A stretch of 58,922 nt of DNA from Candidatus Staskawiczbacteria bacterium RIFOXYB1_FULL_38_37 (GCA_001822075.1 MHPK01000006.1:124977-183898); one strand, 5' to 3'; numbered from the stretch's first letter, positions 12,332-17,490 are shown. Program-made: numbers and translations. Notes: generated by a model not told the origin, from the letters alone.

Positions 12332-14845
12332 TTAAGCGTTTTTACCATGGCACTTCTTATATTTTTTACCGCTACCGCACGGACACGGATCGTTTCTGCC
12401 GACTTCTTTTTTACCTGCCTGCCCAGGCAGGCCTGCTTCAACAGGTTTAAAATTTAGCATTGGCTTTTGTTGCCGGGGAATGCCGGATTTTAAAATATTT
12501 TCTGCAATGTTGGCATCAAGCATTGATAACAATTGCCCAAATGCTTTGTGCGCTTCATTTTTATATTCCACCAAAGGATCCCTGCCAGCATAAGCCCTTA
12601 ATTTTACAGAGTCTCTGACATGGTCCATGTAAGACAAATGGTCTTGCCATGCTAAATCCAAAACCCGCAAACTTACAGCCCTGCACAGCTGGTTAAAATT
12701 TTCCTCTCCCAATTCTTTTTCTTTCTCGCCCAAAGCCTGCAGAGCAGGCATTGTGGCGGGCCCGTCAAAATGGCTTTGGCTTTTGTCGGGTTTCTCAATT
12801 TTGTTAAAAATTTCCCAAATTTCTGTTTTGGGATTTACAAGAAACGCCATGCGCTTTTTGTAAATAATTTCTCTGTGCTTATTTATTACGTCATCATACT
12901 CTAATAAATGCTTTCTAGCGTCAAAATTAAACCCCTCAATTTTTGTTTGGGCAGATTCAATGGCCCCCGAAACCATGCCCGCTTGTATGGGCTGGTCTTC
13001 TGGCATGTTCAAAGCTGTCATTAAATTTTTTATTTTGTCTCCGCCAAAAATACGCATTAGGTCATCTTCCAAAGAAACAAAAAATTGCGTGGAGCCCGGG
13101 TCGCCCTGCCTGCCAGACCTGCCCCTTAACTGGTTGTCTATTCTTCTTGCGTCGTGCCTTTCTGTGCCAATTACATGAAGGCCGCCTAATTCCTTAACTC
13201 TTCGACCCTGCTCAGGGCTCGGTGGGTTCCCACCGAGAATAATATCAACTCCCCTGCCTGCCATATTAGTTGCAATGGTCACACCCCCTTGCTTTCCTGC
13301 CTGGGCTATAATTTCACCTTCTCTTTCATGATTTTTTGCATTCAATGTATTATGAGGTATGCCTTTTGTTTCTAAAAGCCTGCCAACGTATTCATTTTTT
13401 TCAACAGATCTGGTTCCCACTAAAATCGGCTGGCCTTTTTTGTTCAATTCTTCTATTTCTTTTACAAGAGCTTCAAACTTTCCTTTTTCTGTTTTGTAAA
13501 CTTTGTCAGCAGAATCTTTTCTTATCATTGGCTTGTTTGTAGGAATTGAAACAACTTCCAATTTGTAAACCTTGTCAAACTCTTCAGCTGAAGTTAAGGC
13601 GGTGCCTGTCATGCCAGACAATTTTTTGTACATTCTAAAATAATTCTGAAAAGTAATTGTGGCCATTGTTATTGATTCCGGCTTTACCTCGACTCCTTCT
13701 TTTGCCTCAACTGCTTGATGAAGCCCGGCAGACCAGCGGCGCCCGGGCAAAATTCTGCCTGTGAATTCATCTATAATTAAAATTTCTCCGTTTTTTACAG
13801 TGTAATCTCTGTCTTTCAAAAACAATGTTTTAGCCCTTAAGGCCGACTCTAACTGGTGGGTTGAGGCAATATCATTGTCTAACCACGGGTCAAAGCCCAA
13901 ACTTTTTACAATTTTGTTCTGGCCTTCTTCTGTAAAGGTTGCTGTTTTTAATTTTTCATCAATCTCGTAATCTATGTCTCTTTGCAGAGGAGACACGACT
14001 TTGGCAAACTTATAATATTTTTCCGTTGCTTCTTCGGCCCGCCCGGAAATAATTAACGGCACGCGAGCTTCGTCAATTAAAATTGAGTCAATTTCGTCAA
14101 CTATGGCAAAGTTGTGGCTTCGTTGCGCTTGTTGATTTTGTTCGTATGCCATATTGTCCCGCAAATAATCAAATCCAAATTCATTGTTTGTGCCGTAAGT
14201 AATGTCAGCTGCATAGGCTTCTTTTCTTGAAACCGGCTTTAAAAAATCCTGCACCACTTTAAACCCGCCCAATTCATCGCGCTCTTTGTCTAATTCGTCA
14301 GAATTTTGAATTTTGAATTTTGAATTTGTATAACCAGCATCATAGACATAGCCACTCTCGTTTGTAATACAGCCTACCGTCAAGCCAAGAAAATGATATA
14401 TCTGGCCCATCCAGACAGCATCTCTTTTTGCAAGGTAATCGTTAACAGTAATTATGTGCGCGCCCTTGCCCTCTAATGCATTTAAATATGCGGGCAGAGT
14501 GGCAGATAAAGTTTTTCCCTCTCCGGTTTTCATTTCAGCAATTTTACCCTGATGCAAAACAATTCCGCCAATTAGTTGTGAATCAAAATGGCGCTGGTTC
14601 AAGCTTCTTTTTGAGGCTTCTCTCACCAAAGCAAAAGCCTCTGGAAGAATGTCATCCAGCCCGCCCAAAGCCGCGGCATTGTTGCGGGCAAGCTTTTCTT
14701 TTAACTCGCTCGTTTTTTGCTTTAACTGCTCGTCTGAAAGCTTCTCAAACTCAGGTGAAAGCGAATTTATCTTATCAACTAAAGGCTGGAGGCTTTTGAC
14801 AAATTTTTCATTCGGGTCGCCAAAAATTTTATTAAAAATCGACAT
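12332..14845 (-). CDS. secA: preprotein translocase ATPase SecA
   Basis: EMKTGEGKT, VDEIDSILIDEARVPLIISG, NMAGRGVDI, QLRGRSGRQGDPG, C-terminal GRNDPCPCGSGKKYKKCHG. Confidence 0.99.
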   Translation of the reverse strand: MSIFNKIFGDPNEKFVKSLQPLVDKINSLSPEFEKLSDEQLKQKTSELKEKLARNNAAALGGLDDILPEAFALVREASKRSLNQRHFDSQLIGGIVLHQGKIAEMKTGEGKTLSATLPAYLNALEGKGAHIITVNDYLAKRDAVWMGQIYHFLGLTVGCITNESGYVYDAGYTNSKFKIQNSDELDKERDELGGFKVVQDFLKPVSRKEAYAADITYGTNNEFGFDYLRDNMAYEQNQQAQRSHNFAIVDEIDSILIDEARVPLIISGRAEEATEKYYKFAKVVSPLQRDIDYEIDEKLKTATFTEEGQNKIVKSLGFDPWLDNDIASTHQLESALRAKTLFLKDRDYTVKNGEILIIDEFTGRILPGRRWSAGLHQAVEAKEGVEVKPESITMATITFQNYFRMYKKLSGMTGTALTSAEEFDKVYKLEVVSIPTNKPMIRKDSADKVYKTEKGKFEALVKEIEELNKKGQPILVGTRSVEKNEYVGRLLETKGIPHNTLNAKNHEREGEIIAQAGKQGGVTIATNMAGRGVDIILGGNPPSPEQGRRVKELGGLHVIGTERHDARRIDNQLRGRSGRQGDPGSTQFFVSLEDDLMRIFGGDKIKNLMTALNMPEDQPIQAGMVSGAIESAQTKIEGFNFDARKHLLEYDDVINKHREIIYKKRMAFLVNPKTEIWEIFNKIEKPDKSQSHFDGPATMPALQALGEKEKELGEENFNQLCRAVSLRVLDLAWQDHLSYMDHVRDSVKLRAYAGRDPLVEYKNEAHKAFGQLLSMLDANIAENILKSGIPRQQKPMLNFKPVEAGLPGQAGKKEVGRNDPCPCGSGKKYKKCHGKNA
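12414..12431. repeat. 18-bp palindrome CCTGCCTGCSCAGGCAGG (family B), in-frame in secA
   Basis: Other copies at 16991-17008 and 26924-26941. Confidence 0.9.
12728..12793. repeat. about 66-bp two-hairpin element (family C), in-frame in secA
   Basis: Near-identical copy at 17065-17132 in an unrelated gene. Confidence 0.9.
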
Positions 14846-14932
14846 ATAAGTACCCTTATTCTACATCAAAACCGCCCTTCTGTAAACACACACAACAAAA
14901 CATTGGGAGATATGATCTCCCAATACATTTTA

Positions 14933-14998
14933 TTAAGTTAACACTTGTTAGCCTGTACTTACTATTGCGACGGCTTTTTGCCGTTCGGCAAAAAGCCG
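14933..14998. repeat. 66-bp structured direct repeat, copy 1
   Basis: 59/66 identical to 16139-16204; terminal hairpin shows a compensatory C-G/G-C change. Confidence 0.9.
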
Positions 14999-15026
14999 CA
15001 CATCTTTATTTTTTTGGCCTCACGTT

Positions 15027-15068
15027 AGGGTCACCGTTAGGGGTAACGTTACCCCTAACGGTGACCCT
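15027..15068. repeat. 42-bp perfect palindrome centred on GTAACGTTAC
   Basis: AGGGTCACCGTTAGGGGTAAC-GTTACCCCTAACGGTGACCCT. Confidence 0.9.
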
Positions 15069-15073
15069 TGCAT

Positions 15074-15101
15074 AAAAAAGCCCCTTGGGTGCCAAGGGGC
15101 T
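15074..15101 (-). terminator. intrinsic terminator of PEP-CTERM gene
   Basis: AGCCCCTTGG/CCAAGGGGCT stem followed by a T6 run on the minus strand. Confidence 0.8.
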
Positions 15102-15118
15102 AAAGCGACGAATCGCTA

Positions 15119-15940
15119 TCATTTGCGACAAAGAAGAAATCCACCAACAATCAGGCCAGTAACCAGCAACACAACCGTCGCAGGCTCAGGAATGTCAGTT
15201 GGCTGACCCGACCAGATATTGAACTCTGCAACATGTGGGTTAATATAGAACTCGACGAGATGACCGTCTACAATACCCTCAACAGCTTTGTAGTATTGTT
15301 GTCCAGACCAAACGAATCTTTTACTAAGGTTAAGGCGCAATCCAAGCCATTCAGGATAAAGCGAATCATCGAATTTCCCAAGAAATTCCGAGGCATCGTC
15401 TCCCCACGCAACCCCTTCAGGATTCGTTGTAAGGTTGAAGTTGCGCTGCTGATCGTTGAAAGTAATACTACCTGCAACCTCAATAGATATGTCTTGAGCT
15501 CTTATGGGTCCGCTAACCATCTCAAAGGTAAGATCCTGTGCTATCGGAAAAGGACCCCTAACAACATTGATATCTGAACTATATGTTGTCAGATAAAGCG
15601 TGAAAGGTATCTCCAACTGGTTGCCGAAGCCCATCTGATATGTGACATTATCAGATAGTGTAATCGTTTCATCCAGTTCGGTATGCATGCCGAGAAATGT
15701 GGTAGTCATTGCCTGCACATCAACATCCCACAAGGAATCTCCATTTGCTGGGACGTGATGCGACGGATCCCAAAAGGATCCTACACTGCCGTTCCAGGCT
15801 TCTGTCGCAATTCCGTCCACGTAGGACTGAATTTGACATCCGTAACCGTTGGATTCAGAGGTAAAGTGATACAAATCGGCAAAAGCCAAATTTGCGGCGG
15901 ACAACAAAACCAACAGGCAAACGAAAAATCTCGTCTTCAT
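15119..15940 (-). CDS. PEP-CTERM sorting-domain secreted protein
   Basis: N-terminal signal peptide; C-terminal IPEPATVVLLVTGLIVGGFLLCRK; AGGAG RBS. Confidence 0.85.
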   Translation of the reverse strand: MKTRFFVCLLVLLSAANLAFADLYHFTSESNGYGCQIQSYVDGIATEAWNGSVGSFWDPSHHVPANGDSLWDVDVQAMTTTFLGMHTELDETITLSDNVTYQMGFGNQLEIPFTLYLTTYSSDINVVRGPFPIAQDLTFEMVSGPIRAQDISIEVAGSITFNDQQRNFNLTTNPEGVAWGDDASEFLGKFDDSLYPEWLGLRLNLSKRFVWSGQQYYKAVEGIVDGHLVEFYINPHVAEFNIWSGQPTDIPEPATVVLLVTGLIVGGFLLCRK

Positions 15941-15990
15941 CGGTATTCTCCTGTAAAGGTACGTTGCAGCGAAGTTGCTGCAATAAAATT

Positions 15991-16019
15991 AGAATATGCC
16001 TAATATCAAAACTTGTCAA
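15991..16019 (-). promoter_or_regulatory. sigma70-like promoter of PEP-CTERM gene
   Basis: TTGACA-17bp-TATTCT on minus strand. Confidence 0.65.
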
Positions 16020-16021
16020 CC

Positions 16022-16078
16022 TCACGTGAGGGATCACGTGACATGGTACATACCTTGGTACATACCACAATACGTACC
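16022..16078. repeat. five 12-bp-phased units with ACGT/ACAT core
   Basis: tcacgtgaggga tcacgtgacatg gtacataccttg gtacataccaca atacgtacc. Confidence 0.7.
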
Positions 16079-16138
16079 AAACCAAAAAACAGGCTCCCCC
16101 GCCCATTTTTTATGGCTCAACCTCGTTGAGCCATATTT

Positions 16139-16204
16139 TTAAGTTAACACTTATTAACCTGCGCTTGCTATTGCGACGGGTTTTTGCCGTTCGGCAAAAA
16201 CCCG
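16139..16204. repeat. 66-bp structured direct repeat, copy 2
   Basis: See 14933-14998. Confidence 0.9.
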
Positions 16205-16248
16205 TCGAATTATGTAACTTCTTTTGGCAATATTAAACTGCTTGCTAT

Positions 16249-16728
16249 TTAATAATATAAATCTAGTTTTGAGCCGGGGGTGATGCCCAATTCTTCAATA
16301 ATTCCGGCATTTATTTCCAAAACGTATTTTGCCAAAGCTCCAGGGTTAATTGCAAGGCACTCTGCGCCCTCAAGACATGGCTGGCTGTTTTCAGCAATAA
16401 AAACAACTTCACCTAAACTGTTTATCCATATTATGTCTAAAGGGATTAAAGTGTTTCTCATCCAAAAAGGATATATACCCTCCTGCCCAAAAACAAAAAG
16501 CATGCCCTGGTCTTTTGGCAAAGAAAACCTGTACATTAGCCCTTTTTCTAATTCTTGTTTTGTTTTTGCCAATTCCACAAAAAAACAAGTTTCTTTATAG
16601 CAAACTTTAGATTGCAAATCATTTTCTAAAGAAGGAGCCAGCAAAATGCCTTTTATTTGAAAAAACAAAAAAGCCAAGCACAACAGAGCTGCAATAAAAA
16701 TTAAAATTTTGAAAACAAATTTTATCAT
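16249..16728 (-). CDS. DUF192 family protein
   Basis: VELAKT...EKGLMYR..LP..QGMLFVF, FWMRNTLIPLDIIWI, YVLEINAG. Confidence 0.92.
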   Translation of the reverse strand: MIKFVFKILIFIAALLCLAFLFFQIKGILLAPSLENDLQSKVCYKETCFFVELAKTKQELEKGLMYRFSLPKDQGMLFVFGQEGIYPFWMRNTLIPLDIIWINSLGEVVFIAENSQPCLEGAECLAINPGALAKYVLEINAGIIEELGITPGSKLDLYY

Positions 16729-17490
16729 TTATTTTGCGTTAAGTCTTTTTTGGACGGCTTCACTTTGCAGCTCAGTTAAAGCATTGTTTGCCACCCACTT
16801 GGCTGGCTTTGAATTTATTTTTTGGATTTCTTTGGCAAGCTTTATTGCCTTTTTGTTTAAATTTTTGTTTCTTTTGCCAATCTGGCGCAAAGCCCAGTTT
16901 ACAGCTTTTTTAACAAAATTTCTTTCATCGGTTGAAGCTTTTTTTATCAAAGGAAAAAATTTTAAAAAATCTTTGTCTTTCATTTTTTTACCTGCCTGCG
17001 CAGGCAGGCCATGCACAGCTAAACACGCTATGAGCGTGAAGGCGGTACGTCGTTGAAATTCCCCGCCCAAAGCCTGCGAAGCAGGCATTATGGCGGGCCC
17101 GTCTAAATGCCTTTTAGGCTTTTGTCGGGTTTTGGCCAATTCAAATACCTTTTTATAAATAAAACTTGCCTTATCAAACAAGCTTAAGCAGACCTGGTCA
17201 ACAACATCCCAAGAGTCAAAACCATTGATCCATTTATCCATTTGCTTTTCTGTCAGAAGCCCGGCATCTGCAATAAATCCGGCTAAAATTCTTGCCTCAT
17301 GTATTCCAGAATCAAAAAGTTTTAAAGCTAACTTATGGTCTTTTTTTATAATTTTTGCCAGTTTTCTTAATTCCGGAATCGGAATGCCAAAAACTTTTGT
17401 TTTTGGCCTAATGCCAAACCGCGCCATGCCTTCAGCATTGCGCGGATTCTTTAGAGATTTCAATTTTTTTATAACCTCTGAATAGTTCAT
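16729..17490 (-). CDS. DNA alkylation repair (AlkD-like) protein
   Basis: GIHEARILA, FDSWDVVDQVC, DERNFVKKAVNWALRQIGKRN; carries family B and C inserts. Confidence 0.9.
   Translation of the reverse strand: MNYSEVIKKLKSLKNPRNAEGMARFGIRPKTKVFGIPIPELRKLAKIIKKDHKLALKLFDSGIHEARILAGFIADAGLLTEKQMDKWINGFDSWDVVDQVCLSLFDKASFIYKKVFELAKTRQKPKRHLDGPAIMPASQALGGEFQRRTAFTLIACLAVHGLPAQAGKKMKDKDFLKFFPLIKKASTDERNFVKKAVNWALRQIGKRNKNLNKKAIKLAKEIQKINSKPAKWVANNALTELQSEAVQKRLNAK

Follow-up and report, generated by a model that had tools for sequence, protein, structure and literature searches.

A two-hairpin palindromic repeat lying in frame within unrelated genes of Candidatus Staskawiczbacteria

We analyzed a stretch of 58,922 nucleotides (the window) from Candidatus Staskawiczbacteria bacterium RIFOXYB1_FULL_38_37 (GCA_001822075.1, MHPK01000006.1:124977-183898), in which secA and a gene for an AlkD-like DNA alkylation repair protein carry closely similar copies of a short two-hairpin element, called here Family C. 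We conclude, with a probability of roughly 0.8, that Family C is a non-autonomous repeat, specific to the lineage of Ca. Staskawiczbacteria, that is copied as DNA, resembles the Rickettsia palindromic elements (RPEs) in behavior and the REPINs (doublets of repetitive extragenic palindromic, or REP, sequences) in shape, and is a selfish element translated in tolerant loops of its host proteins. A preliminary description of the window had proposed a repeat placed in frame in two unrelated genes. This held, and the repeat has many members, a covarying two-hairpin structure, empty orthologous sites, constraints on frame, orientation and length, a composite form that has proliferated, and a distribution restricted to one family-level clade.

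The two copies of the window lie 4.3 kb apart on one contig (Table 1) and are mutual best matches within the genome. Their blastn alignment spans 68 columns at 89.7% identity and has 5 mismatches and a single gap of 2 nt, which agrees with the five or so substitutions and the 2-bp indel counted beforehand. The likeness ends at the borders of the element, and the flanks are unrelated. The two stretches first marked are thus real, with borders placed 3 nt off relative to the comparison with empty sites, and the translations first given for them, ...HFDGPATMPALQALG for SecA and ...HLDGPAIMPASQALG for the AlkD-like protein, are correct. A 39-nt consensus including 3 N has 2 exact matches in the window and none in 100 shuffles. 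The coding (minus) strands of the copies fold at -30.8 and -36.5 kcal/mol (z = -4.1 each; 0 of 200 shuffles equally stable), and the Pfam matches of SecA and of the PF08713 protein are each broken in two at the element. The AlkD-like copy, with its 68 nt and one extra A, makes 23 codons (TRQKPKRHLDGPAIMPASQALGG). Its first half is read in another phase than that of the secA copy because the loop of its first hairpin unit is 2 nt longer.

Table 1. Family C copies, their hairpin units and their host genes in the window.
Feature	Position	Strand	Remarks
Family C copy in secA	12725..12790	-	core 66 nt; covariance model R1 90.2 bits, E 1e-20; missing in 19 orthologues; minus-strand reading CCCGACAAAAGCC...TTTGGGCGAG; encodes PDKSQSHFDGPATMPALQALGE-type residues, ~685-706 of SecA; plus-strand sequence CTCGCCCAAAGCCTGCAGAGCAGGCATTGTGGCGGGCCCGTCAAAATGGCTTTGGCTTTTGTCGGG
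secA copy, hairpin unit A (5' unit on coding strand)	12761..12790	-	outer stem CCCGACAAAA/TTTTGACGGG, A.A mismatch; inner GCC/GGC stem degenerate (GCC..GCC)
secA copy, hairpin unit B	12725..12760	-	outer stem CCCGCC(A)CAA/TTG GGCGAG; inner hairpin GCCTGC-TCT-GCAGGC
Family C copy in AlkD-like (PF08713) gene	17062..17129	-	core 68 nt; R1 90.2 bits; missing in 5 orthologues
AlkD-like copy, hairpin unit A	17098..17129	-	CCCGACAAAAGCC-TAAAA-GGCATTTAGACGGG
AlkD-like copy, hairpin unit B	17062..17097	-	CCCGCCATAAT-GCCTGC-TTC-GCAGGC-TTTGGGCGGG
Host gene secA	12332..14845	-	837 aa; element in the vestigial helical wing, scaffold helix to KEKELGE...LRAYA segment
Host AlkD-like DNA alkylation repair gene	16729..17490	-	253 aa; element in an inter-helix loop, predicted disordered

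Family C extends well beyond these two genes. In the genome (G000; 762 kb, 37% GC, 7 contigs), a profile search identified six full copies, with E-values between 7e-22 and 2e-13, all within long open reading frames (ORFs). Besides SecA and the AlkD-like protein, the hosts are uL23 (as an N-terminal extension), the IscS/NifS cysteine desulfurase, YchF and the prepilin peptidase PilD, the last four being on contigs other than that of the window. Single hairpin units are found at the N-terminus of ProRS and in a few other places of the genome. We used the six full copies to build a covariance model (R1), a check that had been suggested with the original observation, and searched 61 related genomes. 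Strong matches (E < 1e-9) were found in 10 of them, all from one family-level group, and around 40 further copies were identified in nine related genomes. The distribution is patchy, even inside genera. Family C copies are 66-78 nt long and number 5-20 per genome. Neither the Rfam covariance models (E <= 1) on the element nor Pfam on its peptide gave a match.

Two wider scans gave the same taxonomic picture. In an exact-pattern scan with one genome per species, nearly all matches in named genomes were metagenome-assembled genomes (MAGs) of Ca. Staskawiczbacteria. A pattern scan of metagenomes found at least 115 stretches, and R1 confirmed 54 of the 80 loci listed. Each of the 10 proteins in the SecA cluster at 90% identity has the element, and 37 contigs of several sources encode exactly this protein. 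Hence, the secA copy is fixed in the species and is not an assembly artefact. One match carries a label from outside the group. On an 11.8-kb contig assigned to a MAG of Candidatus Aenigmatarchaeota, of the DPANN archaea (JBAZQV010000029.1), a GyrA of bacterial type has a Family C copy (LAKPDKSPKGHFDGPATISPKASLGGF), positioned as in the related genome G007. Mis-binning of a Staskawiczbacteria contig is the probable explanation.

On the coding strand, the element consists of two imperfect palindromes of about 30 nt, head to head, joined at GGG^CCC. In each unit, an outer stem CCCGNC(A)AAA/TTTGNCGGG surrounds a small variable inner hairpin. Unit A reads CCCGACAAAAG-[3-4-bp inner stem and loop]-CATTTTGACGGG and has an A.A mismatch that is conserved; where it has the variant CCCGCC, the partner changes to GGCGGG. 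Unit B reads CCCG(C/T)CACAAT-[6-bp inner hairpin]-TTTGG(G/T)CGGG. In many copies unit B is of a T-type (T.T) that is approximately the reverse complement of unit A (A.A type), which makes the whole element pseudo-symmetric, like the clover fold of REPINs. The two minus-strand hairpins of the preliminary description are therefore confirmed with two refinements: a conserved A.A mismatch lies at the center of the CCCGACAAAA/TTTTGACGGG stem, and the GCCTGC/GCAGGC hairpin, real in itself, sits within a second outer stem, CCCGCC..GGCGGG.

These structures covary. Across 59 aligned matches, 93.8% of the pair cells are paired and 19 of the 27 pairs show compensatory changes; none of 500 shuffles does as well, and pairing drops to 49-56% once the partners are slid by one column. 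The inner hairpin of unit B is swapped wholesale among copies, with GCCTGC/GCAGGC, TTCGCC/GGCGAA, CTCGCC/GGCGAG and CCCCGC/GCGGGG among the versions found. In G007 a second hairpin is nested in the inner loop of unit B, resulting in a 117-nt composite of which three copies, about 95% identical, lie in three unrelated genes. This indicates that the composite was copied as a unit after the nesting.

The window also has a shorter type of palindrome (Family B, CCTGCCTGCGCAGGCAGG-type), at 12418-12431 in the part of secA encoding the C-terminus and at 16991-17008 in the AlkD-like gene, where it adds LPGQAG or LPAQAG to the proteins. It has at least 8 occurrences in the genome, and the insert is absent in all five AlkD orthologues. 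A likeness to this palindrome is seen in GCCTGC..GCAGGC, which forms the inner hairpin of unit B in the secA and AlkD-like copies of Family C. YchF has a TAQAGQ insert in G000 and an LPAQAG insert in the same-genus relative G001, at different places. A perfect GC-rich hairpin in an apparent coding region elsewhere in the genome (C6:78146-78173; CCCCGTTAGAGACATCGTCTCTAACGGGG) is unrelated to Family C. Around C6:77.7 kb, too, nothing resembles the element, and nhmmer gave no hit.

Comparisons with orthologues give the direction of the change. In secA, the element is absent in G001 and in 18 other orthologues. At the DNA level, its 66 nt stand where 18 nt of native sequence, encoding LTADDY-type residues, are gone; the net gain of SecA is hence about 16 aa. 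In the AlkD-like gene, the five orthologues lacking the element, G001 included, read ...SKRKE^EF..., and 69 nt replace the native AGA AAA GAG, with a net gain of 20 aa. The addition of about 22 aa claimed originally is thus right for what the element contributes (22-23 codons) and too high for the net gain. The cleanest case is iscS (C2:91502-92800), where 15 orthologues lack the element and exactly 66 nt are inserted between native AAA and GAA codons, with no target duplication. The secA and AlkD-like copies are, on these comparisons, recent insertions made after the split of the species from its same-genus relative.

The ychF gene (C6:32599-33717) has a more complex history. The element is common to this genome and to G007, which is from another genus, and G001 and 18 others keep the native sequence, of which the element displaces about 54 nt for a net gain of 21 nt. 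The gene has the look of a mosaic: its first 300 nt or so are closer to G001 (0.89) than to G007 (0.80), and the remainder, element included, is closer to G007 (0.88) than to G001 (0.71; loci L124 for G007 and L125 for G001). This suggests that an element-bearing allele may have been transferred by recombination. Occupied sites can also differ in what they hold. In uL23 (three genomes) and PilD (two genomes), copies lie at the same site with different or inverted units. In pilD, where the site belongs to the N-terminal zinc-binding domain, this genome has an inverted unit A (C1:81186-81258; GPVKMREALLSGR) and G002 a normal unit B (L059; GPATMPAKRALGGE), which points to inversion or replacement of a unit at an occupied site. 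A distant SecA (P0012) has a different variant at the same place and keeps the native EKYEEKEKELG, so the secA copy described here looks like an insertion followed by an 18-nt deletion, at a site that was used twice.

The SecA wing region is a hotspot where repeats of several unrelated types have inserted, with other in-frame inserts, e.g., NFQFSIFNFQSNLNGQNSNYKN, just upstream in four orthologues (L005, L006, L010 and L017, from G007, G006, G024 and G012). In IscS, a second loop (ARRSPALLAGRLGEGG in this genome) has different inserts in at least six genomes (orthologues L099-L113), and PPPARQSHSAQ marks a third variable site. The secA of G001 (L019) is split into two frames at a poly-A run that lies a short way upstream of the empty site (locus ~1786-1810); an assembly error in the homopolymer is a more probable cause than a pseudogene.

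The junctions share a motif. Among 44 copies, the 5' side reads RAAA, with A at position -1 in 39, and the 3' side reads GA (G in 30 of the 44, A in 37). In the long ORFs of the genome, the codon AAA has a frequency of 0.075, and AAA followed by GA one of 0.012. As the empty sites of iscS already read AAA then GAA, we take RAAA^GA to be a preference for the target and not a part of the element, on the thin basis of this one clean case. The native codons lost beside the element in secA, the AlkD-like gene and ychF amount to 9-54 nt.

How the element is read was assessed in two sets of copies. In the genome set, 42 of the 46 copies are located in ORFs of 100 aa or more: 34 are read in one frame (S0), giving (K)PDKSxxxHFDGPATISPKASLGG(E), 4 in the +1 frame and 4 in antisense, the remaining 4 being at gene ends or intergenic. 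The metagenome set, comprising 49 non-duplicate copies, is independent and has 41 copies in such ORFs, with 32 in S0, 5 in S1, 1 in S2, 3 in antisense, and 8 without a long ORF. Stop codons alone do not explain this bias, since 43 of 44 copies are also open in antisense frame A1, which is used only about three times. The A1 peptide has Cys and a grand average of hydropathy of +0.14, against -0.72 for the S0 peptide, and selection on the peptide may be the cause of the bias in frame and orientation. Of 82 genic copies, 73 have a matched length divisible by 3, against 4 of 12 non-genic ones (Fisher p = 7e-5, a partly circular test, see below), and the loop indels that shift the phase in the middle of a copy (...KPDKSAKRILTGPSQSRPKASLVGE) are offset before its end. 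About 10-15% of the copies are at gene 3' ends or intergenic; several of those at 3' ends provide the stop codon. Excision or bypass of the element would make constraints on frame, orientation and length needless, from which we infer that it is kept in the mRNA and translated. One predicted tryptic peptide is SQSHFDGPATMPALQALGEK.

The positions of the inserts in the proteins fit with loops. The AlphaFold model of the AlkD-like protein (pLDDT, the predicted local distance difference test score, of 66) has three low-confidence segments, and pLDDT falls below 50 exactly at residues 124-141 (Family C) and 163-168 (the LPAQAG insert), both between helices. The model of SecA was too poor to be used (pLDDT 54, predicted template modelling score 0.31), and we relied on an alignment with the Bacillus subtilis protein instead. 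The element falls in the stretch equivalent to B. subtilis 622-699, in the helical wing domain, which between the same anchors has 34 residues here versus 76 in B. subtilis. The wing is therefore shortened, as noticed in the preliminary description, yet orthologues without the element are equally short. Hence, the short wing is a trait of the whole lineage and is not due to the element.

According to the reading that we favor, copies would be placed at many independent sites, chiefly within protein-coding genes, at junctions that are typically RAAA^GA (Lys-Glu codons), without target-site duplication and often with the loss of 9-54 nt of adjacent native codons. Those surviving would be the ones in phase, retained in the mRNA and read as a hydrophilic Pro/Gly-rich loop of 22-26 aa, in places that tolerate it, such as loops, linkers and terminal extensions. 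The copying machinery might be a hairpin-specific single-strand enzyme of the HUH/Y1 type, akin to the REP-associated tyrosine transposases (RAYTs), acting in trans. An equally tentative candidate is the "pasting" of copies onto one another and onto look-alike sites by recombination or template switching, and some other nuclease would take the remaining share. Three observations point to a part for recombination or template switching, besides or instead of transposition: native codons are often lost at junctions, units differ at orthologous sites, and the composite of G007 is homogeneous across three genes.

A search of this genome and 60 relatives for candidate enzymes identified three Y1_Tnp (PF01797) genes in the genome (C3:58024, C4:105549 and C1:36486), whose top NCBIfam match is the REP-associated tyrosine transposase family (REP_Tyr_transpos), below the curated cut-off. 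Two of them, encoding 244-245 aa, are within C4:105291-106130 and C1:36194-37005 and are bracketed by their own inverted hairpins (GTGAGCCCCGAGCTCAC/GTGAGCTCGGAGCTCAC and GGAGTCCCGGACTCC/GGAGTCCGGGACTCC), which occur nowhere else in the genome. They look like IS200-type units or REPtrons without dispersed repeats. The third (C3:58024) is flanked by direct repeats. Private hairpins of such genes occur only 2-3 times each. One Y1 gene of G043 has CCCGCC..GGCGGG feet, a faint resemblance to Family C (18 bits).

Several points weigh against the reading that we favor. The copies are partly non-independent, as several sites are common to orthologues. Compensatory changes in palindromes can arise mechanically, via quasipalindrome template switching, and the covariation is thus no proof of selection on the fold. 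The length test is partly circular because an ORF spanning a copy demands a kept frame. All host genes in this genome are on the G-rich strand, which makes the orientation bias inseparable from a replication-strand bias. Retention in the mRNA and translation are deduced from sequence patterns. Concerning the enzyme, none of the 3 RAYT-like genes here and 10 in element-rich relatives is flanked by Family C, these genes having private hairpins (best R1 score 18 bits). The presence of Y1 genes is only weakly correlated with that of the element: 8 of the 10 element-rich genomes have them, and so do 27 of the 51 others. In view of the private hairpins and of this correlation, we keep the link with RAYTs as a conjecture.

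One could go further and see in Family C and its sister families an undescribed "coding REPIN", active, written into RAAA^GA sites, and overwriting both neighboring codons and existing copies, with alleles that cross genera. We regard this extension as doubtful. Its writer could be a RAYT-like Y1 enzyme in trans, another hairpin-specific single-strand enzyme or nuclease, or template switching. Overwriting would explain the swaps of units at orthologous sites, the nested composites and the twice-used SecA site, and the ychF mosaic suggests that element-bearing alleles may cross genera by recombination. If true, such elements would be a systematic source of loop variation in essential proteins of ultra-small bacteria.

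The favored reading of a selfish, translated repeat has to be weighed against others. The one that survives best, improbable as it is, holds that Family C is a structured RNA or DNA element with a function for the host, such as a ribosome pause, an RNase or stability determinant, or a protein-binding hairpin, the peptide being a by-product. The very stable hairpins (-31 to -39 kcal/mol), the extensive covariation, the variability of the peptide exactly where the stems covary, and the copies at gene 3' ends or in intergenic regions, which are potential terminators, would all suit such a role. It is harder to reconcile with host genes that share nothing and with unrelated positions within them, or with a distribution that is patchy even between congeneric species, whose essential genes function without the element in close relatives. 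No Rfam family matched, and the covariation of the palindromes is possibly mechanical.

Selection could instead have acted on the peptide, recruited as a linear motif or a flexible linker for its KPDKS..HFDGPAT..LGGE sequence (binding, protease site or localisation). We judge this very improbable, even though one frame is used in around 70% of the copies while another is equally open, and the KPDKS, HFDGPAT and LGGE blocks are conserved. These blocks fall on the conserved outer stems, and the rest of the peptide varies freely with compensatory changes in the stems. Copies in other frames or in antisense persist (NPTKAQKGILTGPSQ...; pilD), Pfam has no match, and nucleotide identities of 90-95% across unrelated genes reflect the copying of DNA and not convergence.

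Still less credible is the removal of the element before or during translation, a possibility raised in the preliminary description, be it by intron-like excision, by protein splicing or by a bypass of the kind that the ribosome makes in T4 gene 60 and at mitochondrial byp elements. A GC-rich hairpin within an AT-rich coding region does resemble byp elements and mitochondrial GC clusters. The genic copies, however, have no stop in the host frame, are multiples of 3 nt and compensate their internal phase shifts. Take-off and landing codons that match are missing, as the flanks are AAA on one side and GAA on the other, and no stop follows a take-off site; 22 aa is far below the size of an intein, and no intron-like Rfam family matched. 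A local artefact, i.e., gene conversion between secA and the AlkD-like gene or an assembly chimera, was the refutation named in the preliminary description (only two copies, with shared wider flanks) and is practically excluded: the copies are close on one contig and mutual best matches, but their flanks are unrelated, four more full copies bring the genome to six on several contigs, about 100 others occur in independent assemblies, and the same SecA is on 37 contigs of several sources. We also considered a DNA uptake signal, which was ruled out by the copy number, 5-20 per genome, as known DNA uptake sequences have thousands.

Genomes of the Candidate Phyla Radiation (CPR, or Patescibacteria) are regarded as extremely streamlined. 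Family C would be a selfish repeat within secA, ychF, iscS, uL23, gyrA-like and other core genes of ultra-small groundwater bacteria, inherited through speciation. Our literature search found no description of in-frame palindromic elements in the CPR, and no paper joining RAYT or REPIN with CPR/Patescibacteria; we consider the family a genuine and previously undescribed in-frame, REPIN-shaped repeat of Staskawiczbacteria. It would carry the RPE phenomenon, so far seen as an oddity of Rickettsia, over to a second and unrelated group with reduced genomes, and would tie it by shape to REPINs, whose mechanism is partly understood. For the annotation and phylogenomics of the CPR, unexplained inserts of 20-40 aa in marker proteins may be repeat insertions and not lineage-specific domains, and alignments can be led astray by hotspots of insertion. 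The clean pairs of empty and filled sites, together with the RAAA^GA junction, provide a concrete substrate for studying how hairpins are copied.

Among known systems, the closest by function are the RPEs, of which Family C would be an analogue and not a member. RPEs are palindromic families inserted in frame in many housekeeping genes (Ogata et al. 2002 Genome Res 12:808; 2000 Science 290:347; both after the summary in PMC10969869). Both are palindromic and lie in frame in unrelated housekeeping genes of a small AT-rich genome, and RPEs have a conserved peptide per family, insertions thought to be compatible with fold and function, and no identified transposase. Family C likewise has around 100 copies with a conserved, foldable palindromic structure, in frame in SecA, the AlkD-like protein, uL23, IscS, YchF, PilD and many others. 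Size, architecture and host set the two apart: RPEs are about 100-150 bp long and belong to an alphaproteobacterial genus, whereas Family C is 66-78 nt long and belongs to Ca. Staskawiczbacteria. It is also a doublet in which both hairpins are nested and the inner ones can be exchanged, it often takes the place of native codons, and its junctions read RAAA^GA.

By structure, the closest system would be the REPINs, doublets of imperfect palindromes copied with RAYT transposases (Bertels & Rainey 2011, PMC3116915). Family C is, like them, a copied doublet that can fold as two hairpins (the "clover") or as one long hairpin (PMC3116915), with single units present as apparent remnants, no target-site duplication, and RAYT-like Y1 genes in the same genome. 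REPs and REPINs are, however, extragenic by definition, whereas around 85% of Family C copies are intragenic (42 of 46 and 41 of 49 in ORFs of at least 100 aa) and presumably translated. A cognate RAYT would be expected to have flanking REPs, and the RAYT-like genes examined here all have other, private hairpins. The copy number of Family C, 5-20 per genome, is low.

More distant likenesses concern other mobile and invading elements. Family C shares with IS200/IS605 insertion sequences the hairpin ends and the insertion by a short specific motif without duplication, and with MITEs (transposable elements that are miniature and have inverted repeats) its non-autonomous nature. It lacks the terminal inverted repeats flanked by target duplications of classical MITEs, the clean insertion in iscS being without duplication, and its frequent loss of adjacent native sequence is not predicted by either mechanism. 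We found no parent insertion sequence with the same ends, nor, with R1, a longer gene-bearing copy, a model that is unable to span a large insert. Finally, the GC clusters and byp elements of yeast mitochondria and the coding palindromes of Nematomorpha mitochondria (PMC6649704) are likewise GC-rich hairpins that invade compact AT-rich coding regions. These are organellar, without relation in sequence or structure to Family C, and byp elements break the frame and are bypassed by the ribosome, whereas Family C preserves it.

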